In this document: in pieces, positions 4,528 to 39,818 of the stretch
How positions within the stretch are numbered: position 1 is the first letter of the stretch
Layout of the letters: every line of letters begins with the position of its first letter
Assembly: GCA_001791305.1 (NCBI GenBank)
Contig: MGEI01000005.1
Location: forward strand, 404,208-468,207
Length of the DNA: 64,000 nucleotides
Source of the DNA: Candidatus Uhrbacteria bacterium RIFCSPLOWO2_01_FULL_47_17
GTDB taxonomy: Bacteria > Patescibacteriota > Patescibacteriia > UBA9934 > GWF2-40-263
Direction: 5' to 3'
Notes under the pieces: generated by a model
The model's input: the letters and a program-made list of their open reading frames with translations, nothing else
What the model was told of the DNA's origin: nothing
Databases searched by the model: none
Made by a program: the position numbers and the translations under genes

Positions 4528-5427
4528 ATGATCGAAGCCATCTCAGAATCCATTGCAAAAGTTGTTGGGGCGCAAAAAGGTCCAACGATTGTGGTGATGG
4601 GCGGAATTCACGGAAATGAACGTACAGGTGTTGAGGTCGTAAAAAAACTTGCGTATCAGTTTGAACATAGCGAAATCAATCTTGCGTCAGGAGTGTTGTA
4701 TTTGATTTTAGGAAATCCAAAAGCGATTGAGCGTGATACCCGGGGGAGTGAAGACCATGCGGATTTGAATCGTTGTTTTAAACGCGACGTTCTCGAATGC
4801 ATTCCCGAAACGTACGAACAGACGCGCGCTCAAGAGATCGCAAAGATTCTCGCCACAGCCGACATCTCAATCGACCTTCACGCCACAAACAAACCTTCCG
4901 TCCCGTTTCTTTGCTGCGCCGTCGACGAGGCACACGAAAAAATTTACCAATGGTTTGACTGCGACCGCGTCCTCGCTGATCCACGCTACATCCTCGGCGG
5001 CGAGCCTGTGACGACGGACGAGTTTATCGATCTCAACGGTGGAGTCGGAATTTGTTATGAGACTGGACAGTCGAAGGATTTGAGTCGCATTGACGAGGTG
5101 TTGAGTGATGTGAGGGATGTGTTGAGGGATCAGAACATGATCGCGGCTATGGCCCCCTCTCCCTTCGAGGGAGAGGGCGGGGGGAGAGGGGTCACACGAT
5201 CTGTTTATGAACTCGTCTCCGTCATCAATCTCACCGAAGCTGGATTTCGATACGAAGGAACTCTCGGTGGCGGGTCGTTCGAGGAATTCACTTCTGGCCA
5301 AACGATCGGCTACATCGGTGATAAACCCGTGGTTGCCGAGTTTGATGGCGTGATCGTGTTCCCAAAGATTCCGGAATTGCAGACCTTTGGGAAGCCGGTG
5401 GTGTATCTCGCAAAGAAAATCAAGTAA
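4528..5427 (+). CDS. Succinylglutamate desuccinylase/aspartoacylase (AstE/AspA) family zinc hydrolase
   Basis: VVMGGIHGNERTG signature and the HADLNRCF region. It carries an in-frame family-A repeat at 5152..5195 that encodes PSPFEGEGGGRGV. Confidence 0.6.
   Translation: MIEAISESIAKVVGAQKGPTIVVMGGIHGNERTGVEVVKKLAYQFEHSEINLASGVLYLILGNPKAIERDTRGSEDHADLNRCFKRDVLECIPETYEQTRAQEIAKILATADISIDLHATNKPSVPFLCCAVDEAHEKIYQWFDCDRVLADPRYILGGEPVTTDEFIDLNGGVGICYETGQSKDLSRIDEVLSDVRDVLRDQNMIAAMAPSPFEGEGGGRGVTRSVYELVSVINLTEAGFRYEGTLGGGSFEEFTSGQTIGYIGDKPVVAEFDGVIVFPKIPELQTFGKPVVYLAKKIK
5152..5195. repeat. Family-A palindromic/G-tract element (GCCCCCTCTCCCTTCGAGGGAGAGGGCGGGGGGAGAGGGGTCAC), in frame within a CDS
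   Basis: A near-identical copy lies at 24672..24715 inside the ComEC-like gene. Related copies lie at 29402..29445, 36916..36960 and 35402..35440. Confidence 0.75.
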
Positions 5428-19372: not shown

Positions 19373-20257
19373 TCAAGCCGCTTGCGCGTCTGTGTTTGCG
19401 GCACGTTGCGGCTTAAAGAGAAAAAAATTTCGGACTTGTTTCACCTCGTCATCGATCCGAAAGTCGAATGTGTAGGGAATCGTCATTTGACAAGGGTGAA
19501 ACACATATCCCGGATACTGCTCATGGATGCGGGCCATGCCTTCCTGAAGACGCCGTGTCCAATCATCTGCAGAATCTTGGGTGCTGACATTTTCCTGATG
19601 GCGAACACGTTCGATCTGAAACGTTTTGTCTGTTGGATTTGCTTGTTTCACTTGGAGACAAGTCACTGCTTCGTTTTTTTCGCTGAAGACGAACAGATCA
19701 ATTCCAAGCATATATGATTCATAGACGCTTGGTAAATACATCCAGCACTCGTCGAGTTCTGAAATGATTTCGATGGTCTGTGCGCATGCGTGCGCGTAGT
19801 CGCAGCTCATGTTCCAGATGTTCGATCGGATCCCGGGCAGGGCGCCGATTTTGAGCACGCTCGGAATATCTTTCGGATCAAGATCCAAAAAGAGTTCAAC
19901 GAGTTTCTGCTTACACATGGCAACAAGAACGCTGTGAGATCTACGTTCATTGTCCGAGAATTGCGGGTGCATGAAGTGGAACGTCATGCGGTGCAAGATG
20001 ATCGCTTCAAACAGACATTTTTCCACTTCCGACAGCTGCTTTCTGAACGCGATGTATGTGGAGTCGAGCACGCGCTGAAAGAATGCGTTGTGTGTTTGCA
20101 CATGTCGTGTTTTCGAAAGCTCGGGCGCTTCCGGGAGATAGACAGGTTTGTTTTGCAAAAAGTCTTCCACACGACGCAAAATATCTGGCGTGAACATTTT
20201 GCTTCCGCGCACAAGACAGATTTCGTGATGAGTACGCAAGAATGTGTCGAGCATCAC
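19373..20257 (-). CDS. Hypothetical protein (294 aa; the start may instead be the internal Met at 20197)
   Basis: A long intact ORF with its own terminator. No family was recognised; a ThyX-like RHR..S..S.RY motif was looked for and is absent. Confidence 0.35.
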   Translation of the reverse strand: MMLDTFLRTHHEICLVRGSKMFTPDILRRVEDFLQNKPVYLPEAPELSKTRHVQTHNAFFQRVLDSTYIAFRKQLSEVEKCLFEAIILHRMTFHFMHPQFSDNERRSHSVLVAMCKQKLVELFLDLDPKDIPSVLKIGALPGIRSNIWNMSCDYAHACAQTIEIISELDECWMYLPSVYESYMLGIDLFVFSEKNEAVTCLQVKQANPTDKTFQIERVRHQENVSTQDSADDWTRRLQEGMARIHEQYPGYVFHPCQMTIPYTFDFRIDDEVKQVRNFFLFKPQRAANTDAQAA

Positions 20258-20365
20258 CTACCTCATGGAGATGGATATCCCATCTCATCTAAAAAGGACG
20301 ATATGGAAGACTACCAACAGAATCCGGTTGCGTCAAGCCTTTTTGTTCGATATGATCCTTTTACT

Positions 20366-23209
20366 ATGAGCTATAACCATCAGGAAATTGAAAAGAAATG
20401 GCAGGCCAAATGGGCGGCCAATCGAGCGGGTCATGTTGACGAGGCCGCGTCGAGAGACAACGCGCTCTATTATTTGATCATGTTTCCGTACCCATCTGGA
20501 TCTGGTTTGCACGTGGGACACGTGGAATCGCAAGCCGCGATCGATATTTTGGCTCGCATGGAACGCATGCGTGGAAAAAATGTGTTGTGTCCGATCGGAT
20601 ACGATGCCTTCGGTTTGCCCGCCGAGAATTATGCGATCAAGACGGGAGTACACCCTGCCGAGACCACAAAAAAAGCGATCGAGAATTTTCATAACCAAAT
20701 GCAATCGCTTGGTCTTTCGTTTGATTGGTCACGCGAAATTTCGACGGCTGATCCGGAATATTACAAATGGACGCAATGGTTATTTTTGTTGTTCTACAAA
20801 AACGGATTGGCGTACAGAAAAAAATCTCCCGTGAACTGGTGCGAAGGATGCCATACGGTTCTTGCAAACGAGCAGGTTGTCGCGGGAGCTTGTGAGCGTT
20901 GCGGGACGGTTGTTGTGCAAAAAGAGTTGGAGCAATGGTTTTTTCATATCACAAAATATGCAGATCGACTTCTTGCGGGATTGGATTCGATCGACTGGCC
21001 AGAGAAGATTAAGTCGATGCAACGCAACTGGATTGGGAAGAGTGTGGGGGCAGAGATAAACTTTTTAGTGATGAGTGATGAGGGATCAGGGATCAGTGAT
21101 CAGGCGAAAGATTCCCTCAAGTTTACACCGGAGCTAACCGAGTTAATTTATTCAGGAAAAAAGACCAACACGATTCGTTTGGAGAAAAAGAATTTGCAAG
21201 TTGGTGACACGGTTCGACTCATGACTCGATTGAGTGCAACAGAAACGCATTCATTCGCGTTTGCGAAAATTACGGGTGTTGATTTGATAAAGCTGAACGA
21301 CATCTCACTTGATCTCAAAGGACACGAAAGATATGAATCACGAGAAGCCATGTTAAAAAGTTATCAAGATTTTTATGGTGCAACTGTTTCGTTAGAAACA
21401 GAATTTGTTCTTTATCACTTTGCGAACGTTACGCCGCTCATTACCGTCTTCACCACACGCCCAGACACACTCTTCGGCGCAACCTATCTCGTTCTCGCGC
21501 CCGAACACGCACTCGTCGATCAGATCGTCACAGACGAACATCGATCCGAGATCGACACGTATCGAATCGCTGCATCAAAAAAGTCTGTGCTTGAACGAAC
21601 GGAATTACAAAAAGAAAAGACGGGAGTCTTCACAGGTGCCTATGCAATCAATCCGGCAAATGGAGAACAGATTCCAGTCTGGATCGCGGATTATGTGATC
21701 ACAACTTACGGAACAGGAGCGATTATGGCGGTACCCGCACACGATGCGCGCGATTTTGAGTTTGCAAAGAAATATGAGTTGCCAATCAAAGTTGTCGTGA
21801 AGCCGGCCGTGCTGCAAACGCTCATGTCCGAGACTCTCGCAGTCTCTCACGGTGCACAGTCTTCCGTCGAGATCGTCTCGGATTGTTTTACAGAACAAGG
21901 AATTGCGATCAACTCCGCGTTTCTCGATGGCCTCTCGACTGCGGACGCAAAACAAAAGATGATTGCTTGGCTCGAAGAAAAACATATTGGAAATGCAAAA
22001 ACGACTTTTCGTCTCCGTGACTGGCTTGTTTCTCGCCAGCGATACTGGGGAGCGCCGATCCCGATTATTTGGTGTGAAAATTGCGGTGCGCAGCCGGTTG
22101 AGGAAGCACAGCTTCCTGTCGAACTTCCAACCGACGTCGATTTCTCCGCCATAGGCGGATCCGCCTCCGGCGGAAAACCAACAGGTGAATCACCGCTCGT
22201 CGATTCAAACACATTTCACAATGTGAAATGTCCGACGTGCGGAAAAGCCGCGCGTCGCGAATCCGACACGATGGACACGTTCGTCGATTCGTCCTGGTAC
22301 TATCTTCGCTACACAGATCCGCACAATACGAATGCGTTCGCGGACAAATCAAAAATTGATTATTGGTGCCCGGTCGACCTGTATCTCGGCGGTGCAGAAC
22401 ATGCTGTGATGCATTTGTTGTACGCGCGATTTTTTGCGTACGCGCTTCACGATCTGGGCTATCTTGGCTTCGAAGAGCCATTCTTGAAACTCAAAAATCA
22501 AGGTCTCATTCTTGGTCCGGACGGCGACAAGATGTCAAAATCAAAAGGGAACGTGGTGAACCCGGACGAGATGGTTTCCGAATATGGCGCGGACGCACTT
22601 CGTTTGTATGAAATGTTCATGGGCCCACTCGAAGACGCAAAGCCGTGGGATACGAAAGGCGTAGTCGGCGTTCGTCGTTTTCTCGATAAGGTTCACAATT
22701 TGTGCATTCGCGTTATAGGCGGGGTCCCCAGACCCCGCGACGATGCGCATACGAAATTGATTCATAAATCCATCAAAAAAATCACGTCCGATCTCGAAGA
22801 ATTAAAATTCAACACAGCCATCTCTCAGCTCATGATTGTTGTGAATGAATTCTCGAGCGCGTCTTCGATCAACAAAGAAACGTTCGAAACGTTTTTGAAA
22901 CTCCTCGCGCCTCTCGCACCACACCTCGCCGAGGAACTGTGGGAGAAGCTTGGACACACGACGTCGATCTTTGCAGAGTCATGGCCTGTGTTCGATTCAA
23001 CACTCATCGTCGACGATGTGGTCGACATGGGTGTTCAAGTAAATGGAAAAGTTCGCGGGACGATCTCGCTTGCACCAAGTGCGGACGAGGCCACGGCAAA
23101 AGAACTCGCGTTTGCAAATGTGAATGTGATGAAATGGATTGATGGCAAAGAGATTATGAAGATTGTGTATGTGCCAGGAAAGATTTTTAACATTGTTGTA
23201 AAGGAATAG
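20366..23209 (+). CDS. leuS: Leucyl-tRNA synthetase with an inserted ASCH-like domain
   Basis: Starts MSYNHQEIEKKWQ, with PYPSGSGLHVGHV (the HIGH motif), the TTRPDTLFGATYLVLAPEH editing domain and KMSKS. A ~115-aa insertion (21067..21420) sits between the catalytic and editing regions. A family-B repeat lies in frame at 22715..22742. Confidence 0.9.
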   Translation: MSYNHQEIEKKWQAKWAANRAGHVDEAASRDNALYYLIMFPYPSGSGLHVGHVESQAAIDILARMERMRGKNVLCPIGYDAFGLPAENYAIKTGVHPAETTKKAIENFHNQMQSLGLSFDWSREISTADPEYYKWTQWLFLLFYKNGLAYRKKSPVNWCEGCHTVLANEQVVAGACERCGTVVVQKELEQWFFHITKYADRLLAGLDSIDWPEKIKSMQRNWIGKSVGAEINFLVMSDEGSGISDQAKDSLKFTPELTELIYSGKKTNTIRLEKKNLQVGDTVRLMTRLSATETHSFAFAKITGVDLIKLNDISLDLKGHERYESREAMLKSYQDFYGATVSLETEFVLYHFANVTPLITVFTTRPDTLFGATYLVLAPEHALVDQIVTDEHRSEIDTYRIAASKKSVLERTELQKEKTGVFTGAYAINPANGEQIPVWIADYVITTYGTGAIMAVPAHDARDFEFAKKYELPIKVVVKPAVLQTLMSETLAVSHGAQSSVEIVSDCFTEQGIAINSAFLDGLSTADAKQKMIAWLEEKHIGNAKTTFRLRDWLVSRQRYWGAPIPIIWCENCGAQPVEEAQLPVELPTDVDFSAIGGSASGGKPTGESPLVDSNTFHNVKCPTCGKAARRESDTMDTFVDSSWYYLRYTDPHNTNAFADKSKIDYWCPVDLYLGGAEHAVMHLLYARFFAYALHDLGYLGFEEPFLKLKNQGLILGPDGDKMSKSKGNVVNPDEMVSEYGADALRLYEMFMGPLEDAKPWDTKGVVGVRRFLDKVHNLCIRVIGGVPRPRDDAHTKLIHKSIKKITSDLEELKFNTAISQLMIVVNEFSSASSINKETFETFLKLLAPLAPHLAEELWEKLGHTTSIFAESWPVFDSTLIVDDVVDMGVQVNGKVRGTISLAPSADEATAKELAFANVNVMKWIDGKEIMKIVYVPGKIFNIVVKE
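22715..22742. repeat. Family-B palindrome ATAGGCGGGGTCCCCAGACCCCGCGACGA inside leuS (in frame, encoding IGGVPRPRDD)
   Basis: 27 of 29 nt are identical to the intergenic copy at 34038..34069. The same core occurs at 6722 and 26057. Confidence 0.7.
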
Positions 23210-24523: not shown

Positions 24524-26036
24524 AAAGATCACAACATCGCCATCAAGAACATTCGCCCTTCTCGCGGCGATGTTTTGTTTCGGCATCCTCGTAGGTCCAC
24601 TCGCGATCGGCATCTCGACGTCGGTCTTCGGCGTGCTCCTCGCGATCTGTCTCCTGAGCTTCTCATTCATAGCCCCCTCTCCCTTCGAGGGAGAGGGCGG
24701 GGGGAGAGGGGTCACAAGTGCATCTTCTCGAAACACATTCCGCATCTTATGCCTTGCTCTCTTCTTCCTCGTCTTGGGATTATTTTGCTACCAACAAAGT
24801 GAAATTCCAAAAAACATTCCCACGGTTCGTGACTTCACCGGTTCTCAGATCCGCATCGAAGGTGATGTGATCGCCGAGTCATCCATCAAAACAAAATCAC
24901 AACAAGTGACAATTGGTCGCGTGAAAGTTGCTGACGTGCCCGTATTCGGAAACGTGCTCGTAACTGTCTTGAGGGAACAGTCGATCGCATACGGCGATCA
25001 CCTCGTCTTCTCTTGCTCCATGCAAATTCCACGACCATTCAGTGGATTCGCGTATGATCGCTTCCTCCAAGCAAAGGGAACCTTTGCGCTTTGTCGCTTT
25101 CCGCACGATCTCGAACGCGCGCCCTCGAATGCGTTCTCGCTTGTTGCTTCGATCCTCACATTCAAACGAGACGTTGTCTCAACCATGAAACACGTCTTTC
25201 CCGAACCGCATGCTTCGTTCCTCTTTGGTCTCGTCTTCGGAGGAAATGTTGGTCTTGAGCGAACGATCCAAGACGAGTTTCGAGAAACCGGCATGTCACA
25301 CATCCTCGCCGCCTCCGGTTTCAATGTCTCGCTTTTCACCTTCGTCTTCTTCGGCTGGATCGTTCAGCACCTCGGCCGTAAACGCGGCGCGATCGCAACC
25401 GCAATTTTGCTCGCTGTGTATGTGATCATGGCCGGCGCAACCGCCGCCGTGGTTCGCGCCGCAATCTTCGGAGGTGTTCTCCTTATCGGTTCCATGATCG
25501 GGCGACGCGCGTCGATCGTGAATACGCTTCTGCTCACCGCATCCGTCATGTTGTTTTACAATCCGCGTTGGCTCCTCGACGACGTTGGTTTTCAACTCTC
25601 GTTCGTCGCCTTCGCCGCAATCATTTTCATCGCGCCGCGTCTCGAAGAAAAACTCGAGTTCGTTCCCGAACACATCGGCATCCGCAACGCCCTCGCCGGT
25701 TCACTCTCTGCAATTTTTCTCACGCTTCCCATCATCCTCTGGCAGTTCGGCTCGATCTCGCTTGTCGCCCCATTCGCAAACGTTTTCGTGCTCCCACTCG
25801 TTCCATTCCTCATGTTCTACACAATCGCGATTCTGCCGATCGCCTGGCTTTCGACTTCCATCGGACAACTCATCGCTCTGCCGGCGCTCTTCGGATCGAA
25901 ATACATTCTCGCGATAGTCTCGATATTCGCCTCGCCAACATTCGCCTCCGTTTCCGTTCCGTTCGCGCAGACAGCCGCGGTCATCGTTGTGATTGGGCTC
26001 GCCATCGGATCCGTTGTCTTTTTTCGACGGGCGTGA
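24504..26036 (+). CDS. ComEC/Rec2-like membrane protein (DUF4131 plus competence domain)
   Basis: FGLVFGGNVGLERTIQDEFRETGMSHILAASGFNVSLF, the ComEC core, and multiple TM helices. An in-frame family-A repeat lies at 24672..24715. The start was taken at an internal Met because the long ORF overlaps the end of ugd. Confidence 0.6.
   Translation: MLVSVFKKITTSPSRTFALLAAMFCFGILVGPLAIGISTSVFGVLLAICLLSFSFIAPSPFEGEGGGRGVTSASSRNTFRILCLALFFLVLGLFCYQQSEIPKNIPTVRDFTGSQIRIEGDVIAESSIKTKSQQVTIGRVKVADVPVFGNVLVTVLREQSIAYGDHLVFSCSMQIPRPFSGFAYDRFLQAKGTFALCRFPHDLERAPSNAFSLVASILTFKRDVVSTMKHVFPEPHASFLFGLVFGGNVGLERTIQDEFRETGMSHILAASGFNVSLFTFVFFGWIVQHLGRKRGAIATAILLAVYVIMAGATAAVVRAAIFGGVLLIGSMIGRRASIVNTLLLTASVMLFYNPRWLLDDVGFQLSFVAFAAIIFIAPRLEEKLEFVPEHIGIRNALAGSLSAIFLTLPIILWQFGSISLVAPFANVFVLPLVPFLMFYTIAILPIAWLSTSIGQLIALPALFGSKYILAIVSIFASPTFASVSVPFAQTAAVIVVIGLAIGSVVFFRRA
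24672..24715. repeat. Family-A element in frame within the ComEC-like gene (encodes PSPFEGEGGGRGV)
   Basis: 43 of 44 nt are identical to the copy at 5152..5195. Confidence 0.75.
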
Positions 26037-26056: not shown

Positions 26057-26080
26057 GCGGGGTCAGGGGACCCCGCCTAT
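26057..26080. repeat. Family-B palindrome (reverse orientation) GCGGGGTCaggGGACCCCGCCTAT between comEC and ndk
   Basis: Same core as 6722, 22715 and 34038. Confidence 0.6.
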
Positions 26081-26092
26081 AACATAAAATGT

Positions 26093-29390: not shown

Positions 29391-29401
29391 TGGGCGTCCC
29401 A

Positions 29402-29445
29402 GCCCCCTCTTCTCATCGAGGAGAGGGCGGGGGGAGAGGTGTCCC
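29402..29445. repeat. Family-A variant element immediately upstream of the GNAT start codon
   Basis: GCCCCCTCTTCTCATCGAGGAGAGGGCGGGGGGAGAGGTGTCCC, directly followed by the ATG. Confidence 0.65.
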
Positions 29446-30009
29446 ATGCGTATTCGTCGATTGAATTTCAGTGATCTTCGGCAAGTGGTTCTGTTGTATT
29501 GCGGGTGTTTCACAGAAGCTCCGTGGTTCGAATGCTTCGATCCGGAAGAAGTGTGGCAAGAGTTCGTGTTGCTGTTTGCGCAAGCGCTTCCAAAAAAGGT
29601 TCGTGCAAAACACAAAGAACGCGCAGAGTTTCTCGTATGTGAAAATGAGGGTCAAATCGTGGGCGCTGCGATCGGATTTCCAATGGCTCAGAAACCAGAT
29701 GTCGCCACCCTTGTGACGACAGACACGGAACACACATTTTATTTTTCCGAACTGTTCGTGAGTTCGATGTATCGCAAGCAAGGTGTCGCGAAAGCGCTGA
29801 TTCGTGCGCGTATGAAAAAAGCTCGCGCGCGCGGGTTCACACACGGCGTGGTGCGCACCTCGATTGCGCAGTCCGTCATTCAACATCTCTATGTCGACGA
29901 GCTCGGGTTTTCGATCGTTGCGACACAAGAGGTCACATCGACAAAAGTGATCGATGGCGTGAAACAGGACGTCCCTGACACGCGTGTGATCATGGCCGGA
30001 AAAATCTAG
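29446..30009 (+). CDS. GNAT family N-acetyltransferase
   Basis: Motif A VSSMYRKQGVAKALI in a 187-aa protein. Two hairpin terminators follow (30006..30030, 30041..30075). Confidence 0.6.
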   Translation: MRIRRLNFSDLRQVVLLYCGCFTEAPWFECFDPEEVWQEFVLLFAQALPKKVRAKHKERAEFLVCENEGQIVGAAIGFPMAQKPDVATLVTTDTEHTFYFSELFVSSMYRKQGVAKALIRARMKKARARGFTHGVVRTSIAQSVIQHLYVDELGFSIVATQEVTSTKVIDGVKQDVPDTRVIMAGKI

Positions 30010-30107
30010 GAGAGGGAGGGGCATGCCCCTCCCTTACGTAAACGTACAGGCGCACGACATGCGCCTGTTTTTTGTGTATGAAAAAACCATCTCGAGATTC
30101 GAGATGG

Positions 30108-32072
30108 TTAGAGGTTGACTTCTTCGATCCAAGCCGTGAGGACAACGTCCGCAGGAGCGCGCCAGTCACCGCGAGGCGAGAGCGACACGCTTGCGATCTT
30201 CGGGCAGTCCGGCAGGTTTTGCCGTTTGAATTGTGCGTTCGAGAATCGCTTCAGGAACGCGAGCAACCATTTCAGAATCGTGGCGCGATCGAATTCTCCC
30301 GCGAACGTGAGTTCGGCGAGCCAAGCAATTTTTCGCGGCGCGTATCCATTGCGGATCATGTGCCAGAGGAAAAAGTCGTGCAGGATGTACGGACCGATGA
30401 TGTCTTCGGTTAGTTGCTCGATTTCGCCAGCCTTCTTTGCTTTCACAAGTTCTGGCGAAACGGGCGTCGCGAGAACGTCGAGGATCGACGTGCGGATTTC
30501 CTTGAAGAGCTCGATGTCCGCCGCGTGGCGAACAAGGTATTTCACGAGCGTTTTCGGGATGTCGCCGTTTGGATTGTACATCGACTGTTGATCGCCGTTG
30601 TACGTGCACCAACCTTGCGCGATTTCCGAGAGATCGCCCGTGCCAATCACGAACCCGAGGTCCATGAGAATGTGCGTGCGTTCACGCGCTTGCGCGTTCT
30701 CACACTGCAGGCACGTCCAGCACGGCTCGTGGCCAATGCTGCGAAGATGAGTCGTCACATTCTTCACAATCGAAATGTCTTTCCAGGTGACGCCGGTTTG
30801 CTGAATGAGCTTCAGCGCATTTTTCTTTGTGCGCTTCGAAGTGCCAGCGCCCGGCATCGTCACCGCAAGGATGCCCTTGCGATCCCAACCGAGTTCGTCA
30901 AACGCGCGAAGTGTGAAGAGAAATGCGAGAAGCGAATCGAGTCCGCCCGAGATGCCGATGACAACCTGACGTTTCGTCACGTTTTCGACACTCAAGAGTT
31001 TTCGCTTGAGCGCGGTCACGGCGTGGGCGAAGATGTCTTCGCACCGTTCGGCGCGTAGCTTGTCATCCGACGGAACAAACGGGAGTTTGTTCAGGGGGAC
31101 GATCGGACGCACCGCGATCGCATCGTCGGACGATTTGATCGTGCACTCGATCCGATGGAACGTTTTCGGATCGACCATCGAGGTCTGACCGAAACTTCCG
31201 GACATGAATCGCTCGCGTTCGAGCTTCTCGACATCAATGTCTGTGATGAGGAGTTGCGATTCGAACTGAAACGGTTTGGAGCGAATCCGCAGATGGCCGT
31301 TTTCGGCAATCATCGCGTCGCCGTCAAAGATGACATCGCCGGACGATTCCCACGGACCAGACGAGACGTACAAGTACGCACTCATGCAGCGCGCCGACTG
31401 TTGCGTCACGAGGTCTTTGCGATACGCTCCCTTTCCAATCTCGCTGTTTGAAGCAGAGAGATTGGTGAGGATCGTCGCGCCCGCATTCGCCATGTGCGAA
31501 CTCGGAGGAATCGGCATCCAGACGTCTTCACAGATTTCCGTGCCGAGACAAAAGATGCGGTGCTTGCTCGAACCCGTGCCCACGAACACATCTATCACGT
31601 GATTCGTTCCAAACGGAACACGCTGTCCGCAGAGTTCCACTTCCGAAATAGTCGCTTCATACGATGGTCGAAACCATCGGCTTTCGTAGAAGTGCTTGTA
31701 GTTCGGAATGAACGTCTTTGGCGTCACACACAAGATCTTGCCCTTGTGGCAGGTCACTGCAACATTGAACAACTTTTGGTTCACGAGCAGTGGCATGCCG
31801 ACTTGGATGATCATGTCGATCGCGTCTGTTAGATTGAGAAACAACTGAAGTTCCTCGACGGCTTTCTTGTGGAGAAATGGTTGCAAGAACAAATCGCCGC
31901 AGGTGTAGCCGGTAAGCGAGAGTTCTGGAAACGTGAGCAACTGTACACGCTCATGTTCAGCATTCCCAACAAGTTTCATCATCTCAAACACATTCATACG
32001 TGGATTTGCAACGTGCACTCTCGGCACCGCAACCGCCACACGAACAAGACCAAACGTATTCTTGGGTTTCAT
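30108..32072 (-). CDS. nadE: Glutamine-dependent NAD+ synthetase (N-terminal CN-hydrolase domain plus C-terminal NAD synthetase)
   Basis: Nitrilase-type N-terminus (LLTFPELSLTGYTCGDLF), C-terminal PP-loop VIGISGGLDS and a GGAGG SD. The start was chosen at the internal Met, giving 654 aa. Confidence 0.85.
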   Translation of the reverse strand: MKPKNTFGLVRVAVAVPRVHVANPRMNVFEMMKLVGNAEHERVQLLTFPELSLTGYTCGDLFLQPFLHKKAVEELQLFLNLTDAIDMIIQVGMPLLVNQKLFNVAVTCHKGKILCVTPKTFIPNYKHFYESRWFRPSYEATISEVELCGQRVPFGTNHVIDVFVGTGSSKHRIFCLGTEICEDVWMPIPPSSHMANAGATILTNLSASNSEIGKGAYRKDLVTQQSARCMSAYLYVSSGPWESSGDVIFDGDAMIAENGHLRIRSKPFQFESQLLITDIDVEKLERERFMSGSFGQTSMVDPKTFHRIECTIKSSDDAIAVRPIVPLNKLPFVPSDDKLRAERCEDIFAHAVTALKRKLLSVENVTKRQVVIGISGGLDSLLAFLFTLRAFDELGWDRKGILAVTMPGAGTSKRTKKNALKLIQQTGVTWKDISIVKNVTTHLRSIGHEPCWTCLQCENAQARERTHILMDLGFVIGTGDLSEIAQGWCTYNGDQQSMYNPNGDIPKTLVKYLVRHAADIELFKEIRTSILDVLATPVSPELVKAKKAGEIEQLTEDIIGPYILHDFFLWHMIRNGYAPRKIAWLAELTFAGEFDRATILKWLLAFLKRFSNAQFKRQNLPDCPKIASVSLSPRGDWRAPADVVLTAWIEEVNL

Positions 32073-32162
32073 GTTGTCTCCTTCCTGATTTTCGCATACC
32101 GACACGATTGTCAGTGGGCGAAGAAAAGGGGCGATGTAAACATCGCCAGATCGTATCGTGTC

Positions 32163-32192
32163 CGTAGGGGAGGGTCGCGACCCTCCCCTACG
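32163..32192. repeat. Family-C palindrome CGTAGGGGAGGGTCGCGACCCTCCCCTACG between the radical SAM gene and nadE
   Basis: Paralog of 1703..1726 with the same AATGC flank. Confidence 0.6.
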
Positions 32193-32205
32193 AATGCGCA
32201 TCGCA

Positions 32206-33165
32206 TCAATACAGAATATCGCCGTTGTGATCCCAGTTGCGGTAACCGTGACCGTCGGGCTTGTGCACGATCGACTTCATGACCGTACCGCCGTTTGCTT
32301 CTTCGCAGCGCGCAAACGTGACGTTCACGCCATGCGACTGCTCGTCGAAAATCCCGCCGACCAGGAACACAGGCGTGCCCCACGGAAGCGGATTGCCGAT
32401 GCGGACGCCGTGTTCCTTGTTCATACCGAACTCGGTGAACGCGGTCTGGAGCGGCGCGATGTCGATCCAGTTCGTCGCATTCCAGTCGATCACTTCCTGC
32501 GTCGCGCGGCCAACCGATTCCGGTCGCCATACTTCGCGGATGACCACCATTTGCACGCCGAGGTTGCCGAGCACACGAATGTACTCGAGAATCCCAGCCG
32601 TATTTTTCACACCTGACTTGTTGATGACAAGCGACGCGCGAACCATGAGTCCAAAGCTTCGACAACGTTGAATCAACTCCGCCGGCGACTTCTTGATCAA
32701 CATGAGTTCACGATTCTGTTTGAAGTCGTGACTCGCGATCGAGAGCGTGATCATGGTGAGACCAGCATTGACGAGATCCGGAAGTAGATATTCTCTTGAA
32801 ATGGACGGTGGTAGATTGGGTTGGAACAAGTAACCGTTCGTATGCATGTCCACGAGCGGAAGATAACGACTGCATTCTTTCACAACACTCACGAGGTACT
32901 CAGCTTTTTCCTGACTTGGATCCGCACGCCCTGTGAGGATCGCGTGCGTTGCGCCCGTGCGTTCTGCAAATCGCAGACCGACACGAAGACGCTTCAAGCC
33001 ACAGAGCTTCACAAGCTTCTCGTCTTCAACCTCCGTCCCGGGCGTTGTGCGACTGATGCAAAACTTGCAACCAGCTGTGCAACGCTCGCGGGTAGAGAGC
33101 TGAATCGAAATGCTTTGTGCGCGCATCTGTCCAGAACCGTGAGCGATTTGCTGATGGTCTGCCAT
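32206..33165 (-). CDS. Radical SAM protein of unknown function
   Basis: CTAGCKFC (a Cx3Cx2C motif) near the N-terminus and an AAGGTGAAGGAG SD. Confidence 0.55.
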   Translation of the reverse strand: MADHQQIAHGSGQMRAQSISIQLSTRERCTAGCKFCISRTTPGTEVEDEKLVKLCGLKRLRVGLRFAERTGATHAILTGRADPSQEKAEYLVSVVKECSRYLPLVDMHTNGYLFQPNLPPSISREYLLPDLVNAGLTMITLSIASHDFKQNRELMLIKKSPAELIQRCRSFGLMVRASLVINKSGVKNTAGILEYIRVLGNLGVQMVVIREVWRPESVGRATQEVIDWNATNWIDIAPLQTAFTEFGMNKEHGVRIGNPLPWGTPVFLVGGIFDEQSHGVNVTFARCEEANGGTVMKSIVHKPDGHGYRNWDHNGDILY

Positions 33166-33248
33166 TGAATGAACTCCTTCACCTTCACACGTCGACGAAA
33201 TTGTCGGCGGGTGGAGAAAAGGATGATGCATGTGCATCATCAAGCCTG

Positions 33249-33962
33249 TTAATCCATTTCCACTCCATGTTCTTCGCCATCCATATCGTCATCACCGCGC
33301 TCATCTTCGAACGGATAGGCGGCATCGTCGCTAGAGACACCCTCGCAATCACAGGAGTGATCGATGACCTCGTTCAGACGAACGATCTTGCGTTCGAGGA
33401 GCTTCAAGCGAATGTATTGAATGAATGCGAGCACGCGCAGGTCGTCGCAGACGAACGTTTCGAGATCTTTTGTTGAGACCCAGTGACGGGTGATCCCTTC
33501 GTTCTCGCCTTCCGCGCTGCGAACGTCATCGTCCTTGCCCGTAAGTTGTTCGGGGCGTACCTCGGCATAGCAAAGGTATGCACGTTCGGTGAGGACACCA
33601 ATCGATAGCACCATGCTTTGGCCGAAGTTCAACATCTCGATGTCATCCTCCGTGAGGTCAACTCCGACTTCTTCCATCGCTTCTTTGATGAGAAGTTGTT
33701 TGGGCGAAAGTTTTACATCGAATCGACCCGCAAACGGCGTGACGAGCGTGCCGTGCGGATTCTCGTCTGACATCGCCGCAACGTGATCTTGCCTGATGAG
33801 CAAAATGCGTTCGTTGACGACATCGTGGAGAACTCCCGCAACAGAATCCGTTGTCCGGATGAATTCATTCAAGAATCGATTGCCGGGTTTTAGCCAGCGC
33901 TCCAGTATGACAAACCCTTTGTGAGGGATGTCGACCAGAACGGGAAGCGGTTTGTTTGCCAT
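33249..33962 (-). CDS. Nudix hydrolase (ADP-ribose/NAD-related pyrophosphatase candidate) with an acidic C-terminal tail
   Basis: Nudix box GRFDVKLSPKQLLIKEAMEEVGV. The SD is nearly identical to that of the radical SAM gene. Confidence 0.6.
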   Translation of the reverse strand: MANKPLPVLVDIPHKGFVILERWLKPGNRFLNEFIRTTDSVAGVLHDVVNERILLIRQDHVAAMSDENPHGTLVTPFAGRFDVKLSPKQLLIKEAMEEVGVDLTEDDIEMLNFGQSMVLSIGVLTERAYLCYAEVRPEQLTGKDDDVRSAEGENEGITRHWVSTKDLETFVCDDLRVLAFIQYIRLKLLERKIVRLNEVIDHSCDCEGVSSDDAAYPFEDERGDDDMDGEEHGVEMD

Positions 33963-34037
33963 CGTTGTTTCCTTCACCTTCACATGCCGACACAATTGTC
34001 AGCATGCGGAGAAAAGGGGTGATTGAATCACCCAGGT

Positions 34038-34069
34038 TATGGGCGGGGTCACCAGACCCCGCGACGAAT
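34038..34069. repeat. Family-B palindrome TATGGGCGGGGTCACCAGACCCCGCGACGAAT downstream of pncB
   Basis: Near-identical to the copy inside leuS. Confidence 0.65.
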
Positions 34070-35325
34070 CAGACCAAACACGTAACATTTACATGTTCGT
34101 ATCGATCGTAATTCGTCAGTCGTTTCACACGCAGTACAGCAGATGTGCGGCCGGTCAGTTTCTTTCGGTTGTCCGAGAGTTTGACGGTTGCGCGTCCCGA
34201 GATGTGAGTGAGCTTGCAGACAATCGAGAGTGCTTTCAGTCCGCGATTGTTTTCGTAATTCTGGAAACCCATGTTGTTGCCAAGGTTCGTGCCCCAGCCA
34301 AACGCGAGTTTGATGCGACCGCGGAAGTGCGCGTTCAATTGCACGATGAGTCGTGCGTCGAGACCGTCCGAGAAGACAATGAGTTTCGTCTTTGGATCGA
34401 TTCCGATCAACTCGTAAAACTTGATGATCTTTTCGCCGTATGCAAACGGGTCGCCGGAATCGTGACGTGTTCCGATCCACAGCTCGGCAAACGCCTTGAA
34501 GTGTTCGAGGAAGTAGTCCGAGCCGTACGTGTCCGAAAGCGCGATCGAAAGGATGGTGCCGTAGAGTGCAAACCATTGTTCGAGGAGCAGATCGTGCGAG
34601 TACATGTACCCGCGTGCGTCGTCCTCTTTGTGGTAAATGCCTTGATAGCCCATGTCCATTTCGTGGGCGATGGTGCCGATCGCTTCAATGCCGAGTTCAA
34701 GCGCGATCCAGATGTTGGATGTGCCCGCAAATTGTTTGCCCATTGTTGCAGCACAGGTTGCAACAACTTCGAACTGCCAATCATAGCTCCACCGACGACG
34801 CGTGCTGAAATCTGTGACGACGGCGTCCGATTCCATGACAATGTCGATGTTCTCGATGAGCTTGTCGCGGCCCGAGGCAATGACTTCTTCTTCCGTGAGC
34901 CCGAGCTCTTTGCACTTTGCGCGGAAGTAGATGCGATTGACCACGTTCATGATGAACGTTTCCCACATCGTGATTGCGGTCCACTTGCCCTGCGCGTAAA
35001 TGGCGAGCTTGCCTTTCACCACGCCGACATGAATGTCCGAGAGCTTGTAGCTGCGAAGCCACGTAAGGAACGCAGGCTGCAGTTGTTTGCCAAGGGTTGG
35101 ATGATTCCGAAGGCGTTCGATCATGCCCTGCGTCATCGTCATCTGCTTGATGTGGTCGAGTTCCGCTTGGACTTGTTCGACCGTCATGTAATTGAGCAGA
35201 TTCACATCTGTCCGATTTTTGAACGTGAAGCGTCCCTTGCGTTTGCGCTGATGGAGCCAGATGAACTGGAGCATCATCAGTTTGTACTTGTCTGTATCGA
35301 GTAAGTTCTTGACGATGTCGAACAT
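34069..35325 (-). CDS. pncB: Nicotinate phosphoribosyltransferase
   Basis: MFDIVKNLLDTDKYKLMMLQ (cf. pncB's DTDxYKLTM), ~418 aa, AGGAGG SD. Confidence 0.75.
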   Translation of the reverse strand: MFDIVKNLLDTDKYKLMMLQFIWLHQRKRKGRFTFKNRTDVNLLNYMTVEQVQAELDHIKQMTMTQGMIERLRNHPTLGKQLQPAFLTWLRSYKLSDIHVGVVKGKLAIYAQGKWTAITMWETFIMNVVNRIYFRAKCKELGLTEEEVIASGRDKLIENIDIVMESDAVVTDFSTRRRWSYDWQFEVVATCAATMGKQFAGTSNIWIALELGIEAIGTIAHEMDMGYQGIYHKEDDARGYMYSHDLLLEQWFALYGTILSIALSDTYGSDYFLEHFKAFAELWIGTRHDSGDPFAYGEKIIKFYELIGIDPKTKLIVFSDGLDARLIVQLNAHFRGRIKLAFGWGTNLGNNMGFQNYENNRGLKALSIVCKLTHISGRATVKLSDNRKKLTGRTSAVLRVKRLTNYDRYEHVNVTCLV

Positions 35326-35348
35326 CGTGCCTCCTGTTTCAACGCTTA

Positions 35349-35371
35349 CTCATGAACCCCGTGTTCATGAG
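35349..35371. promoter_or_regulatory. Inverted repeat CTCATGAAC-cccgt-GTTCATGAG in the pncB leader
   Basis: Perfect 9-bp arms, 24-46 nt upstream of the pncB start. Confidence 0.35.
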
Positions 35372-35506
35372 AGAAATGTGCCCCCGAATGCGTTCCACGA
35401 AGCCCCTCCTGCGAAGGAGGGGTTGGGGGAGGTTGCGCTCAGGAAAACGTTTCTTGAAGGAAAAATGTTCCCGGGGCTGAATGATTCAACCCCGAGACGA
35501 GATGAC

Positions 35507-36895
35507 TTACAATTCGCTGATGCGACGTTGCAAATCTGTTTCTGGAAAGAAGGCGAGTTCTGCGGTTGCGGTTGCGCTTCGACGAATATTCATCCAGTTT
35601 AGTTCGCCAAGCGCGACGCCGTCGCAGAAACCGCGCATAGGGCGCTTTTCTTGGTTCATGGCTTCGAATCGAATGCTTGTTTCGATCGGAAGCGGTTCGT
35701 TCTTCCAATGATGGGAGCACACGCAGCTTCCAACAAGTTGGAGCATTTGTGTGCCGGGGATGAGGCGTGATCCGCCCATGCGGTACGCATACCCCGTTGA
35801 TCCAGCCGCCGTTGAGACGAGCATGATGTCTGACATGATGGGATCGAATTTCACTTCGCCGTTCATGAGGACACGTGTCCAAATTGTTTGCCCGCTGAGG
35901 CGATCCACCCATGCATCGTTGAATGCGAGCATGTTGGATTGTGTGCCGTCAACAGATTCCGCCTCTATGTATAACAGCGATTCTGTGTACGTCTTGAGTT
36001 CGAGGTGTGATTGCAGTTGATCAACAATCTTCGTTTCGTCGAAGTCGTTGAGCAAGAATCCTTTCGTGCCGCGATTGAGTCCGAGGAAGGGAACATGGTC
36101 ACGCCACAGACGACGAATCGTATGAAGCATGAATCCATCGCCCCCAATCACGACAATGCAATTGTGTTCACCGATGGGTGTCTGAAACGCATCTGATAAT
36201 CTCTTGCCGATCGCAACCGTACTTTCATTGCGGTCGTTTGCGACAACAAGCGGTCGAAGTGTTTCTTGAAATTCCGCAGGACCTCGCATGATGCGTCCCG
36301 TGAATAACTGATGTCGTGCGATGTATTGACCAATCGCTGGTGACACAAGATCGTCGATTGACTGATGCCTGAAGATCCGTTCGCGAATTTCCGAACTGGA
36401 TCCACGGAGCGTCGGTTCGATGATCGTGTGGTGTGGCGGAAGATCTTCGGGCACGCATTCGATTCCATGGCGCATGTGCACGAGGAAGTGAAGTGTGTTC
36501 CAGACTTCCTGTCCGCAAAACCACGTTCGATGAATCTCGGACAATCCATGCGCGCCACCGGCAACGATGTCGGCGCCGATCACGTGACAGATTTCATGAT
36601 TCGGATACAGCGCACGATAGCGCTGATCTATGTCGAACGAACGCGTAAACACAGATTGCTCGAGATCTGTGAGATCAATTTCGACACGCGGGATGCGGCC
36701 GAACGCGAGGTCACAGAGTGCTGCACGAGACGCAAGTGAAAGATCGTTCGTCGTCTCTTTGTCCGGTCGCGGCCCGCACGGAAGAACGATGAGACGATCA
36801 TCCGGTCCGAGCTTACTCGCAAGTTTCTGAACAATCGCCTCATGATGCAATCCCGGAGGATTGAAACTGCCACCGTACAGAAAAATCTTTGGCAT
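35507..36895 (-). CDS. Bifunctional NaMN/NMN adenylyltransferase (NadD-like) - NAD kinase (NadK) fusion
   Basis: N-terminal IFLYGGSFNPPGLHHEAI and SSEIRERI; C-terminal VVIGGDGFMLHTIR (GGDG) and TAAGSTGYAYRMGG; 462 aa. Confidence 0.7.
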   Translation of the reverse strand: MPKIFLYGGSFNPPGLHHEAIVQKLASKLGPDDRLIVLPCGPRPDKETTNDLSLASRAALCDLAFGRIPRVEIDLTDLEQSVFTRSFDIDQRYRALYPNHEICHVIGADIVAGGAHGLSEIHRTWFCGQEVWNTLHFLVHMRHGIECVPEDLPPHHTIIEPTLRGSSSEIRERIFRHQSIDDLVSPAIGQYIARHQLFTGRIMRGPAEFQETLRPLVVANDRNESTVAIGKRLSDAFQTPIGEHNCIVVIGGDGFMLHTIRRLWRDHVPFLGLNRGTKGFLLNDFDETKIVDQLQSHLELKTYTESLLYIEAESVDGTQSNMLAFNDAWVDRLSGQTIWTRVLMNGEVKFDPIMSDIMLVSTAAGSTGYAYRMGGSRLIPGTQMLQLVGSCVCSHHWKNEPLPIETSIRFEAMNQEKRPMRGFCDGVALGELNWMNIRRSATATAELAFFPETDLQRRISEL

Positions 36896-36915
36896 CTTGT
36901 ACTCCTGTGTTCGAA

Positions 36916-36960
36916 GCCCCCTCTCCCTTCGAGGGAGAGGGCTGGGGAGAGGGTTTGTCC
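36916..36960. repeat. Family-A element upstream of the nadD-nadK start
   Basis: GCCCCCTCTCCCTTCGAGGGAGAGGGCTGGGGAGAGGGTTTGTCC. Confidence 0.65.
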
Positions 36961-37042
36961 TTGCATTAAGCGTCTCACCTCTTGAGGCGCTTAAGAAAAG
37001 GGCAGAGCTTTGGAAAACTCTGCAAGTTGGAAAAAGTTCGTG

Positions 37043-37813
37043 CTACTCTTGGATGAATCTTTCCGCGATCAGGAGTTTACGGAGGATATGCGGGCTCGAT
37101 TTGTCGACGACGTAGAGGTTCTCTCTTTTATCGGCGAACGTGCCAGCGACGAGTTCGGCGGCGATCTCGTCTGCCGCACGACCCGAGCCTTTCACCACAA
37201 TGGTGGGCCAACCTTTCTTGATCGAGCGCATGACTTCATCGCGCGTGATCGCACCGCCGTTCCAGGCAATGACGCCGGCGCGGTGGAAGCCGCCGTATTG
37301 CGTGAGCTGATCCATGAGTCCGAACGCGGCATCCAAGTCGCCATCCCAACCGAGCTTGCCTTCCGCCCCGTCTTGAACGAGGAGGATTGCGTTCATGCTC
37401 GGGTTTGGCGCGGTGCCGTAGTCGTCGAGTACGAGGCGAGACTCTTCGACGAGACGCAGAACGTCCGTGCGAGGAGTCGAACCGAGTGCGACACACTTTG
37501 GATTGCCCGCGGCAACAACGCCAGGAACATCTGTGACCATCGGATCGAGGTTGCCGTCTTTGTCGAATTGGCGCGTGCCACCCGACCAGATCATGCCCTC
37601 GAAACCCTTGAATGCGATCTGGAAAAAATCCATCATCGCTTTCTTATCATCGGCATTCATCCCTTTGCATCCGCCGCTGATGCGAATGCAGACTTTACGC
37701 GCCGCACGCGTTGCCATGAGGGCGAACGTTGCGGGGAGTTGAGCTCCCTTGTCTTGAATGATCAGAACAGTCCTGCCGTCCTGACCAGTTACCGTTTTTG
37801 CGGACATGAACAC
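37043..37813 (-). CDS. SLOG/LOG-like Rossmann-fold protein, paralog 1
   Basis: RISGGCKGM..., WSGGTRQFD..., WNGGAITRDEV... and VVKGSGRAADEI parallel the LOG motifs GGG.G.M / PGG.GT.EE. Confidence 0.4.
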   Translation of the reverse strand: MFMSAKTVTGQDGRTVLIIQDKGAQLPATFALMATRAARKVCIRISGGCKGMNADDKKAMMDFFQIAFKGFEGMIWSGGTRQFDKDGNLDPMVTDVPGVVAAGNPKCVALGSTPRTDVLRLVEESRLVLDDYGTAPNPSMNAILLVQDGAEGKLGWDGDLDAAFGLMDQLTQYGGFHRAGVIAWNGGAITRDEVMRSIKKGWPTIVVKGSGRAADEIAAELVAGTFADKRENLYVVDKSSPHILRKLLIAERFIQE

Positions 37814-37858
37814 CTTCGCACTTCCTAATTTTCCACACCCATGATTTCACGGACGCAG

Positions 37859-38605
37859 TTACTCCGGGGGAAGCATCCCGAAGGAAATGAGATGTTGGCG
37901 AATGTCGCGCGAATCTTTTTCGGCGACACGAACGTTTGGATGTGCTTCGAGAAACGCATTGTTGCTCGCGTACTCATCCGCCTTGCGACCACTTCTTCGT
38001 ATGAGGAGGACGGGCCAACCACGTTTTGCGGTTGCGAGGATTTCGCGTTCCGTCACGCCACCGCCGTTGTAGACGATGAGCAATGATTTGAATTCCGCGA
38101 ACTCGCGCAGGTCTTTCGTGATCTGCAAGCACTCTTCGAACTCCGCGTCCCAAATGGCCGGTTGATCCGGCGACACTTGAACGAGCAGGCACATATCTTG
38201 GTTCGGATGAATGATGGTGCGATAGGTATCCGCATCACTCTCCGAAACCACGAGTCCGTGTTCCGTGATTTTGATCTCCGACGTCCTCGGCACAACGCCG
38301 AGTGACACCATGTTTGGACACACGTCGCGAATGTGCGACGGAATCTCGGTGATCCCAGGCACAATCTGCGACACGTCTTGTTTCTGAATCATGCGCGTGC
38401 CACCAAAGAGCATGGCGCCTGCAAATCCAGCGAATGCATCTGCGAAGAGCGAAAGAAAATCCCGCGCATCCTCGGCGGACATGTATCCACATCCGCCCGT
38501 GAGTCGTACAACAACTCGATTGCGAGCGGTCGTGAGTCTCAGAGCGATCTTTACTGACCGGTCTCCTTGATTCTTCACGAACAAGGAGGGAATGATGTGT
38601 GACAT
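37859..38605 (-). CDS. SLOG/LOG-like Rossmann-fold protein, paralog 2
   Basis: RLTGGCGYMSAED, LFGGTRMIQ, YNGGGVTEREI and LLIRRSGRKADEY share their motif order with paralog 1 (37043..37813). Confidence 0.4.
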   Translation of the reverse strand: MSHIIPSLFVKNQGDRSVKIALRLTTARNRVVVRLTGGCGYMSAEDARDFLSLFADAFAGFAGAMLFGGTRMIQKQDVSQIVPGITEIPSHIRDVCPNMVSLGVVPRTSEIKITEHGLVVSESDADTYRTIIHPNQDMCLLVQVSPDQPAIWDAEFEECLQITKDLREFAEFKSLLIVYNGGGVTEREILATAKRGWPVLLIRRSGRKADEYASNNAFLEAHPNVRVAEKDSRDIRQHLISFGMLPPE

Positions 38606-38751
38606 CGTGTTCTCCTTGTGTTTGTGAACCTTCGATTTCAGAACCTCATGGTTGAGGTGCTGAAGAAAAGGGCTCTGTCATTTCTTTTTGCGGATCTGTA
38701 TGTGCAAGCGGAAATGGAGAGCAGGGGAGAGTTGAGAAAGAGCGAAGAGAC

Positions 38752-39510
38752 TTAGACGTGGATCTGATTCGAGTTGATGCACTCCACGCCGCGAGCGATG
38801 AGGCGCGCTTCCATGAAGGCAATCGAACCCGGGTAGTCGCCATCGGGAGGCAAGCCAACCGAACGCGTGCCGTCGCGGACGATGTAGGACTCGAAGCCTT
38901 CGAGTGCGGCGTCTTCGGCCGTGAAGCCAACGCAGAAGTCGAACGCGAGACCGACGATGAACACGCGCCTGATGCCGCGCTCCTTCAGAATGCGACCGAG
39001 TCCGGTCGGCATCCAAAGCGTATCGCGAAACGCGCTGTAGCTGTCGACACGCGGATCCGTTCCTTTCGGAAAGTGCAGAACGAACGCGCTCTCGAGATCA
39101 CGCAAGCCATCGAAGAGACGAATCTCGTTCGTGGTCATTTCGGCATGTTCGTCCCAGAGGAGCGTTTCGTGCCGATTCAGGCGCATGAGGTAAGCGATCA
39201 AGTCTTCATTGGTGAAGAGTGCATGTTTCGCGATCTTGACCTTGTGACCCAAAACTTCCGTGATCGTGAGCGGACCGCGAGCCCGCTTCACGTAGGAGGT
39301 TCGATAGTTGATGTGTCCTTTCGGATGCGCGTCAAAGACGTTGTATCGCTGATTGCGCTTGAATTTCAGAACGAGCTCTCGGATGACATCGACGATTTCA
39401 AGGGCGCCAGGCACGGGCAGTCCGCCATTTGGACCGAATGCATTTGTGACATCGACCACGATGACAGCATCGCCTTTGCCGATCTGAATCAAACCATCAA
39501 GGTTCCGCAT
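38752..39510 (-). CDS. pncA: Nicotinamidase (isochorismatase-like cysteine hydrolase)
   Basis: VIVVDVTNAF...VFDAHPKGHINY...VFIVGLAFDFCVGFTAEDA (catalytic Cys); GAGGAG SD. Confidence 0.7.
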   Translation of the reverse strand: MRNLDGLIQIGKGDAVIVVDVTNAFGPNGGLPVPGALEIVDVIRELVLKFKRNQRYNVFDAHPKGHINYRTSYVKRARGPLTITEVLGHKVKIAKHALFTNEDLIAYLMRLNRHETLLWDEHAEMTTNEIRLFDGLRDLESAFVLHFPKGTDPRVDSYSAFRDTLWMPTGLGRILKERGIRRVFIVGLAFDFCVGFTAEDAALEGFESYIVRDGTRSVGLPPDGDYPGSIAFMEARLIARGVECINSNQIHV

Positions 39511-39760: not shown

Positions 39761-39818
39761 ACCCAATAAAAACGCACCAATCTTTCGATTTGGTGCGTTT
39801 TGTTCCGTTGACTTTTCG

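Follow-up and report, generated by a model that had tools for sequence, protein, structure and literature searches.

A BoxC/PIT-type triplex-motif repeat lying in frame in a ComEC-family gene of an Uhrbacteria genome, probably as a tolerated and recently exchanged loop

The short dispersed repeats called BoxC or PIT (potential intrastrand triplex) are reportedly treated in papers by Bachellier from the 1990s and by Hoyne and Maher from 2000. To our knowledge, neither the function nor the means of spread of these elements has become clear in about 30 years, and we know of no mobilising machinery for this class in any organism. Two other kinds of small repeats may be mentioned alongside them. 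The Rickettsia palindromic elements (RPE), which Ogata et al. are said to have described in 2000, are reportedly palindromic repeats located in frame in unrelated genes, and the G/C clusters of yeast mitochondria are G/C-rich palindromic mini-elements of 30-50 bp that are sometimes found in coding or rRNA genes. Under the name TMECO, the BoxC/PIT repeats were defined by the pattern CCCTCNCCC-N3-6-GGGNGAGGG-N3-GGGNGAGGG, and 3610 copies were counted in 262 proteobacterial genomes (Holder 2015, PMC4666352). All 23 copies of E. coli MG1655 are intergenic, and the E. coli element has no promoter, terminator or polymerase-blocking activity (PMC4666352). TMECO copies are associated with local sequence instability, no means of their spread is known, and the E. 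coli elements showed no association with mobile elements and no link to phages or plasmids (PMC4666352). Here, a stretch of 64,000 nucleotides from Candidatus Uhrbacteria bacterium RIFCSPLOWO2_01_FULL_47_17 (contig MGEI01000005.1, positions 404,208 to 468,207; hereafter the window) was analyzed with regard to a 45-nt segment residing in the gene of a ComEC/Rec2-family membrane protein. Judged by its sequence, the segment is to be regarded as a copy of the known BoxC/PIT/TMECO repeat and not as a new repeat family. It is probable (roughly 0.78 by our estimate) that this copy is translated as a tolerated loop and recently took the place of an older resident motif.

The core of the segment, 24672-24715, reads GCCCCCTCTCCCTTCGAGGGAGAGGGCGGGGGGAGAGGGGTCAC. 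The entire 45 nt are identical (45/45) to a second copy located in the open reading frame (ORF) 4528-5427, which encodes an AstE/AspA-family deacylase. If the three nucleotides upstream are included, as in the alignment of the repeat finder, the agreement is 47/48 with ATA facing ATG as the only difference. A search of the window with the 44-mer, allowing up to three mismatches, returned two places only (5152-5195 and 24672-24715) with zero mismatches each, and no such pair occurred in 100 dinucleotide shuffles. The value of 43 of 44 nt given by a first-pass annotation of this DNA thus has to be corrected to 44/44, and the first encoded residue is not serine but alanine (GCC). Both copies have the same orientation and reading frame and read as the same 15 codons, APSPFEGEGGGRGVT, although the genes are unrelated and 19.5 kb apart. 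The insert of the ComEC gene is also present in MGEE01000012 (NCBI; L221) and that of the AstE-like gene in ERZ4903055 (ENA; L223), the latter being 99.96% identical to the window over 7.4 kb. Since the insert was found in two independent public assemblies, it is not an assembly artefact. The window and L223 differ at three of 7415 nucleotides, and one of these differences (T to G at 5192, changing Val to Gly) lies within the 45-nt element, which fits the reported instability of the motif, with n = 1.

The identity of the two copies includes synonymous sites, yet at the protein level the nearest ComEC orthologue reaches only about 74-76% identity. Recent mobility or gene conversion, as proposed by the first-pass annotation, is therefore upheld. 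An ancestral protein motif of ComEC with a convergent likeness in AstE, or a chimeric assembly, might be considered instead, and the closest four ComEC orthologues do possess a Gly-rich insert in the same loop. However, the inserts of these orthologues belong to another DNA subfamily, and convergence at the protein level does not agree with 45 of 45 identical nucleotides. That the segment is a DNA element and not a protein motif follows from its occurrence in non-coding DNA (29402 and 36916) and from a copy in the yebC gene of another organism (contig L026, 41.6% G+C, with YebC and RuvC), where an identical 41-nt core is read in another frame as PPLPSRERAGGEG. Convergence, an ancestral protein motif and a chimera are thus refuted by the nucleotide identity, the non-coding copies, the subfamily difference and the three independent assemblies that contain the insert, leaving them a probability close to nil.

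The ComEC copy has the build CCCTCTCCC-TTCGA-GGGAGAGGG-CGGG-GGGAGAGGG, and short tails outside the three arms and two loops complete its 45 nt (Table 1). Arm 1 is able to pair with either purine arm. The ComEC and AstE copies agree with the pattern of Holder in all three arms and in loop 1, and differ from it in loop 2, which is CGGG (4 nt) in place of three nucleotides. The pattern is matched exactly by window positions 36919-36953, for which 0 matches were expected by chance. A copy in the intergenic region between entC and fepB of E. coli, GCCCCCTCTCCCTTCCAGGGTGAGGGCTGGGGGTGAGGGT, is 89.7% identical to the ComEC copy over 39 nt, and BLAST against 5426 complete E. coli genomes yielded matches of 80-95% in 3818 of them, with no annotated feature beneath the places listed. 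Outside E. coli, the bare 23-nt hairpin was detected at no fewer than 118 loci (at least 118, one genome per species) in Proteobacteria including Enterobacter, whose hairpin is identical, Planctomycetota, Chloroflexota, Nitrospirota, Rokubacteria and others. Of 62 matches listed in full, nearly all had the third arm GGGTGAGGG behind the hairpin or its complement in front of it, and no Uhrbacteria genome was among the 118 loci listed. A metagenome scan with arms 2 and 3 gave 93 loci from many hosts with G+C contents of 43-76%, none of them from the source organism. Rfam 15, applied to the whole window at gathering score, recognized two tRNAs only and nothing at the element. What had been called 'family A', as if it were private to this genome, is therefore better assigned to the BoxC/PIT/TMECO class, with which it shares the three-block build, a nearly identical sequence, dispersal in multiple copies, the lack of an associated mobility gene and the tie to local sequence turnover. 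It differs in loop 2, in its host, a bacterium of the candidate phyla radiation (CPR) as against the proteobacterial genomes counted by Holder, and in the position of the ComEC copy in frame within a protein-coding gene. Contrary to the E. coli copies, the ComEC copy and its twin are located inside ORFs with Pfam-supported homologues, but an intergenic location is a habit of the E. coli copies and not a structural requirement.

Since GGGAGAGGG is mirror-symmetric, the ComEC copy cannot distinguish a direct from a mirror third arm. This distinction is possible in asymmetric subfamilies, for which the builds CCCCCTCCTT-TCG-AAGGAGGGGG-CA-GGGGGAGG, ACCCCTCC-TGCCA-AGGAGGGG-AA-GGGGGAGG and CCTCCCCC-TGCAAA-GGGGGAG-CTG-GAGGGGG were found. 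In the clear asymmetric cases (window 35403-35433 and copies in L119, L120 and L216), arm 3 mirrors arm 2 throughout, and none of them shows a direct repeat. These subfamilies thus display the three consecutive blocks of the class (pyrimidine-purine-purine, Y-R-R), with a third block that could lie on the purine strand in antiparallel orientation. A mirror third arm is what an antiparallel purine-motif triplex requires, and a simple alternative hairpin would not account for it.

Table 1. Positions of the triplex-motif copies, of the parts of the ComEC copy, of its host gene and of a second hairpin family in the window
Feature	Coordinates	Strand	Remark
ComEC/Rec2-family membrane protein gene (host gene), 520 aa	24474..26036	+	DUF4131 and Competence domains in homologues
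45-nt BoxC/triplex-motif copy, ComEC residues 67-81, 15 in-frame codons	24672..24716	+	identical to 5152-5196
Arm 1, pyrimidine block CCCTCTCCC	24675..24683	+	paired with arm 2 in both the RNA and the DNA fold
Loop 1, TTCGA	24684..24688	+	also in an Enterobacter copy (L086) and in many other phyla
Arm 2, purine block GGGAGAGGG	24689..24697	+	reverse complement of arm 1
Loop 2, CGGG, 4 nt	24698..24701	+	published pattern: 3 nt
Arm 3, second purine block GGGAGAGGG	24702..24710	+	mirror/direct repeat of arm 2
In-frame twin copy, AstE/AspA-family deacylase gene (4528-5427)	5152..5196	+	
Diverged 45-nt copy, intergenic, subfamily with GAGGAGAGGGCGGGGGGAGAGGTGT	29402..29446	+	same 25 nt in L225
Sister-subfamily triplex motif CCCCTCC-TGCGA-AGGAGGGG-TT-GGGGGAGG, intergenic	35403..35433	+	same subfamily fills the ComEC loop in relatives
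Intergenic copy, about 20 nt upstream of the NadD-NadK fusion gene (minus strand; distance to its start)	36916..36960	+	36919-36953 exact TMECO pattern
Second hairpin family, copy in the LeuRS coding sequence	22712-22743		
Second hairpin family, further copy	34036-34067		
Second hairpin family, inverted copy between ComEC and ndk	26057-26083		

The window contains four to five triplex-motif copies within 64 kb, compared to none in 20 shuffles, and all five have the same orientation. The repeat finder aligned the diverged copies as 29399-29446 and 36913-36960. Two of the motifs lie between genes of a minus-strand NAD salvage cluster (30108-40487) encoding NadE (CN_hydrolase and NAD_synthase), NAPRTase, the NadD-NadK fusion, two SLOG/LSDAT_prok proteins and an NrtR-type Nudix regulator. 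In addition, a lone CCCTCTCCC arm without partner arms is present at 59966-59974 in a minus-strand ORF; it is probably due to chance or a decayed copy.

The ComEC gene has 594 homologues with DUF4131 and Competence domains, among them a 100%-identical match from Candidatus Uhrbacteria bacterium RIFCSPHIGHO2_12_FULL. The insert falls in the loop between transmembrane helices 2 and 3. In an AlphaFold2 model (mean pLDDT, the predicted local distance difference test score, 81; predicted template modelling score, pTM, 0.76), residues 65-79 form a coil between the helices 49-64 and 80-108, with pLDDT values below 50 at 72-81. The first-pass annotation had placed the segment between predicted transmembrane segments near the N-terminus. 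By the positive-inside rule, the loop would be cytoplasmic. The length of the element is a multiple of three and five of its six reading frames are open; having no stop, it leaves the downstream frame of ComEC intact. Most likely, the copy just adds a floppy loop of 15 residues. No sign was found that the insert is needed by ComEC, and orthologues free of it form the majority. In an alignment of 22 homologues, the loop comprises 24 residues in the window protein and six in P0006-P0019; these orthologues contain no insert there, and the loop DNA of a motif-free relative (L218) reads TCG TTG AAA CGA TCT TAT. The closest four orthologues (L119, L215, L120, L216), on the other hand, carry a 33-nt motif of the CCCCTCC subfamily directly after the same TTC codon, and homologous DNA is recognizable just 3' of the motif (AGT GCA TCT TCT in the window, AGC GGA TCC TCT in L119). 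From these four motifs and the common 3' sequence it can be deduced that occupancy of the site is probably ancestral to the subclade. In a neighbour-joining tree based on 436 gap-free columns, the window protein is nested, at low bootstrap values, with P0002, P0003 and P0004. The most economical reading of these sequences is that an ancestral motif at the site was later exchanged for the CCCTCTCCC type in the window lineage. An ancestral segment in ComEC homologues, which according to the first-pass annotation would have spoken against its idea of mobility, thus exists in part: a motif at the site is probably old within the subclade, but the present sequence is recent. Other motifs were noticed at two further ComEC sites in relatives.

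A similar turnover is visible in the AstE-like gene, whose motif-free orthologues (P0123-P0131) have a loop of 9-11 residues at this place. An orthologue with 87% identity (L222) contains a different motif in opposite orientation between the same flanking codons. In another one with 59% identity (L225), a family-A motif is split by a nested 37-nt hairpin, and the purine half of this motif equals that of the window copy at 29402 over 25 nt. In this motif (L225 10658-10744, orthologue P0134), loop 1 is occupied by the nested sequence, an imperfect hairpin, TCGAG-GCT-CTGAGG-AGC-CCTCAG-GCT-CTCGA, all in frame, so that an element lies within an element within a gene. Either insertions survive in few places, the loops of ComEC and AstE among them, or new motifs are drawn in by resident ones.

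In-frame copies are confined neither to these two genes nor to this phylum. Relatives contain other motifs inside truB (antisense) and inside AstE. Among 216 scan matches from all phyla, 59 are located in an ORF reaching at least 60 residues on both sides, a number that is an upper bound in G/C-rich DNA. Ten such ORFs were checked, and all ten encode real Pfam proteins whose domains lie around or across the motif: an E2 acyltransferase and MetRS, each with the motif in a linker, hydantoinase B, a HemN-like radical SAM enzyme, chorismate synthase, urocanase, SelO, YebC, PyrK and urea carboxylase. A literature search on the peptides encoded by such copies, and on triplex motifs within coding sequences or CPR bacteria, gave nothing relevant beyond Holder 2015. 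The purine arms are on the sense strand in nine of the ten verified coding copies of other phyla, and one might suppose that the copy is a functional cis-element kept in the gene, either as an mRNA structure (hairpin or G-quadruplex) at which translation would pause between membrane helices or as a protein-binding site in the DNA. Such a role would be in line with the RNA fold of about -30 kcal/mol in a 71-nt context and with four G-tracts within arms 2 and 3 of the ComEC copy, which on reading the sequence fit a G-quadruplex pattern. However, most ComEC and AstE orthologues do without the element, the same loop holds different subfamilies or orientations in close relatives, the same element is scattered through non-coding DNA, and the E. 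coli element is devoid of the activities named above. A cis-regulatory role is therefore very improbable.

The most plausible history is that of a BoxC/PIT/TMECO copy which would be translated as a disordered Gly/Pro-rich cytoplasmic loop, tolerated by ComEC but not needed. In-gene copies of a compact genome such as this one would persist only in permissive loops and only with a net length divisible by three. The present ComEC sequence would be recent and would have replaced an older resident motif from another subfamily, possibly by template switching between motif copies or by short-patch conversion, in both cases by way of the arms; alternatively, a trans-acting enzyme working on the folded single strand may have re-inserted it. 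Several observations weigh against this history. The nesting of the window protein in the ComEC tree has bootstrap values of 50 and 36, which is weak backing for a replacement. Compared to motif-free orthologues, the net gain is 18 codons in ComEC and six or seven in AstE and not a clean 15, so that simple cut-and-paste does not fit either. Within the species, no allele with an empty site was found, for which reason the boundaries of the insertion are deduced. The fold energies calculated with ViennaRNA, which models hairpins only, did not differ significantly from those of dinucleotide shuffles (z -0.6 to -2.7 for RNA and DNA) because G/C-rich shuffles fold nearly as well. Finally, the class II purine triplex of single-stranded TMECO DNA was observed in vitro and not detected in vivo (PMC4666352).

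The irregular size change also bears on the idea of a non-autonomous element, of the miniature inverted-repeat transposable element (MITE) type or the repetitive extragenic palindrome (REP) or REPIN type, inserted recently and de novo by a transposase encoded elsewhere, e.g. an IS200/IS605 TnpA or a REP-associated tyrosine transposase (RAYT) acting on single-stranded hairpins. The strong hairpin and the identical dispersed copies would suit such an element, and so would the occurrence of the triplex-motif pattern on at least 120 IMG/VR contigs (loci L227-L306 and beyond), some of which may stem from proviruses and include flanking host DNA. Within a contig, copies point in the same direction, in five of five cases in the window and on seven of seven multi-copy viral contigs, unless they form tight inverted pairs, which for their part resemble REPIN doublets. 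On the other side stand the lack of a target-site duplication at all five window copies, the lack of a GTAG or CGTC tag at the ends of the element (GCCCCC... and ...GGGGTCACA), the absence of transposase, recombinase and reverse-transcriptase domains from 40 ORFs of the window, the size change itself and the missing association with mobile elements in E. coli. De novo transposition is thus unlikely, albeit less so than a cis-regulatory role. The sequence TCCCA on both sides of the copy at 29402 was considered as a duplication and rejected; its 3' occurrence aligns with TCACA of other copies and is part of the unit. Likewise, a replication-strand hypothesis was dropped: the five copies of the window all lie on the G-rich strand, and the pooled loci of other organisms (L001-L306) are biased in the opposite direction, the Y-R-R strand being the locally C-rich one in 116 versus 52 of 168 loci (p ~1e-6).

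The copy may be likened to RPEs, selfish palindromic repeats that lie in frame in unrelated genes and are translated as surface loops without harm to the fold. RPEs are, however, about 100-150 bp long, richer in A/T, organized in consensus families restricted to Rickettsia and without a third mirror arm; they have no sequence in common with the 45-nt unit, which is an RPE-like in-frame passenger but not an RPE. REP, bacterial interspersed mosaic element (BIME) and REPIN sequences are also short G/C-rich hairpins, often in inverted pairs, which act or move as single-stranded DNA structures. Yet REPs have their GTAG/CGTC tag, an extragenic location and a cognate RAYT, none of which applies here; a Y1-transposase domain was not detected in the 40 ORFs, a finding that refers to the window. 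Terminal inverted repeats together with a target-site duplication, by which MITEs are recognized, are not given in view of the five copies without duplication. The G/C clusters of yeast mitochondria are comparable as small G/C-rich palindromic elements spreading within one genome, but they reside in a very A/T-rich organellar genome, belong to other sequence families and have no third arm of the triplex type.

Some further repeats of the window deserve mention. Palindromes starting with GTAG (GTAGGGGAGGGTCGTGACCCTCCC...) are located at 1702-1735, 32164-32197 and 30010-30043. GTAG is the tag typical of REPs mobilised by RAYT, and no RAYT domain was seen in the 40 ORFs. A second family of small G/C-rich hairpins, GTTATAGGCGGGGTC-CCCA-GACCCCGC, has no third arm (Table 1). 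Its copy in the LeuRS gene adds about five residues (GGVPRPR) and is common to L215 but not to L120 or L218; in L216, this position of LeuRS holds a longer insert of unrelated sequence. LeuRS (window 19790-23209; orthologues L120, L215, L216, L218 and L221) differs in length between close relatives, with 800 to 1046 residues. The protein of the window lineage contains an inserted ASCH-like domain (weak Pfam match), that of L216 a Ham1p-like domain instead, and that of L120 neither of them. A 63-nt inverted repeat (42173-42235 and 42261-42323, 76% complementary, 25-nt spacer) reaches from the last part of the EPSP synthase gene (40889-42187) into the beginning of the M50 peptidase gene (42208-43002).

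In E. coli, the best-studied case, BoxC/PIT elements are found between genes only. What stands out here is a BoxC element in a CPR genome, in frame in two unrelated genes, and the presence of different subfamilies and orientations at the same protein loops of close relatives. These repeats can thus reside inside genes and turn over there. As a tentative and rather doubtful extension, triplex motifs may be pan-bacterial, virus-borne mobile DNA structures that are repeatedly 'exonised' as in-frame Gly/Pro-rich loops and linkers, preferentially replacing resident motifs; verified examples that can be cited for this are ComEC, AstE, YebC, E2 acyltransferase, MetRS, chorismate synthase, urocanase, SelO, hydantoinase B and the HemN-like enzyme. 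If true, this would imply a motif-targeted copying mechanism, either by template switching at the folded strand or by a dedicated enzyme. Recurring database peptides such as PSPFEGEGGGRG or PSPSKGEGxGEG have their origin in repeat DNA and not in a conserved domain, and by the spot check the in-frame copies reach well-known enzymes across several phyla. With the relatives of the window lineage, nature offers a set of gains, losses and replacements at defined sites; how insertion proceeds, where its boundaries lie and what it costs the protein could be learned from them.

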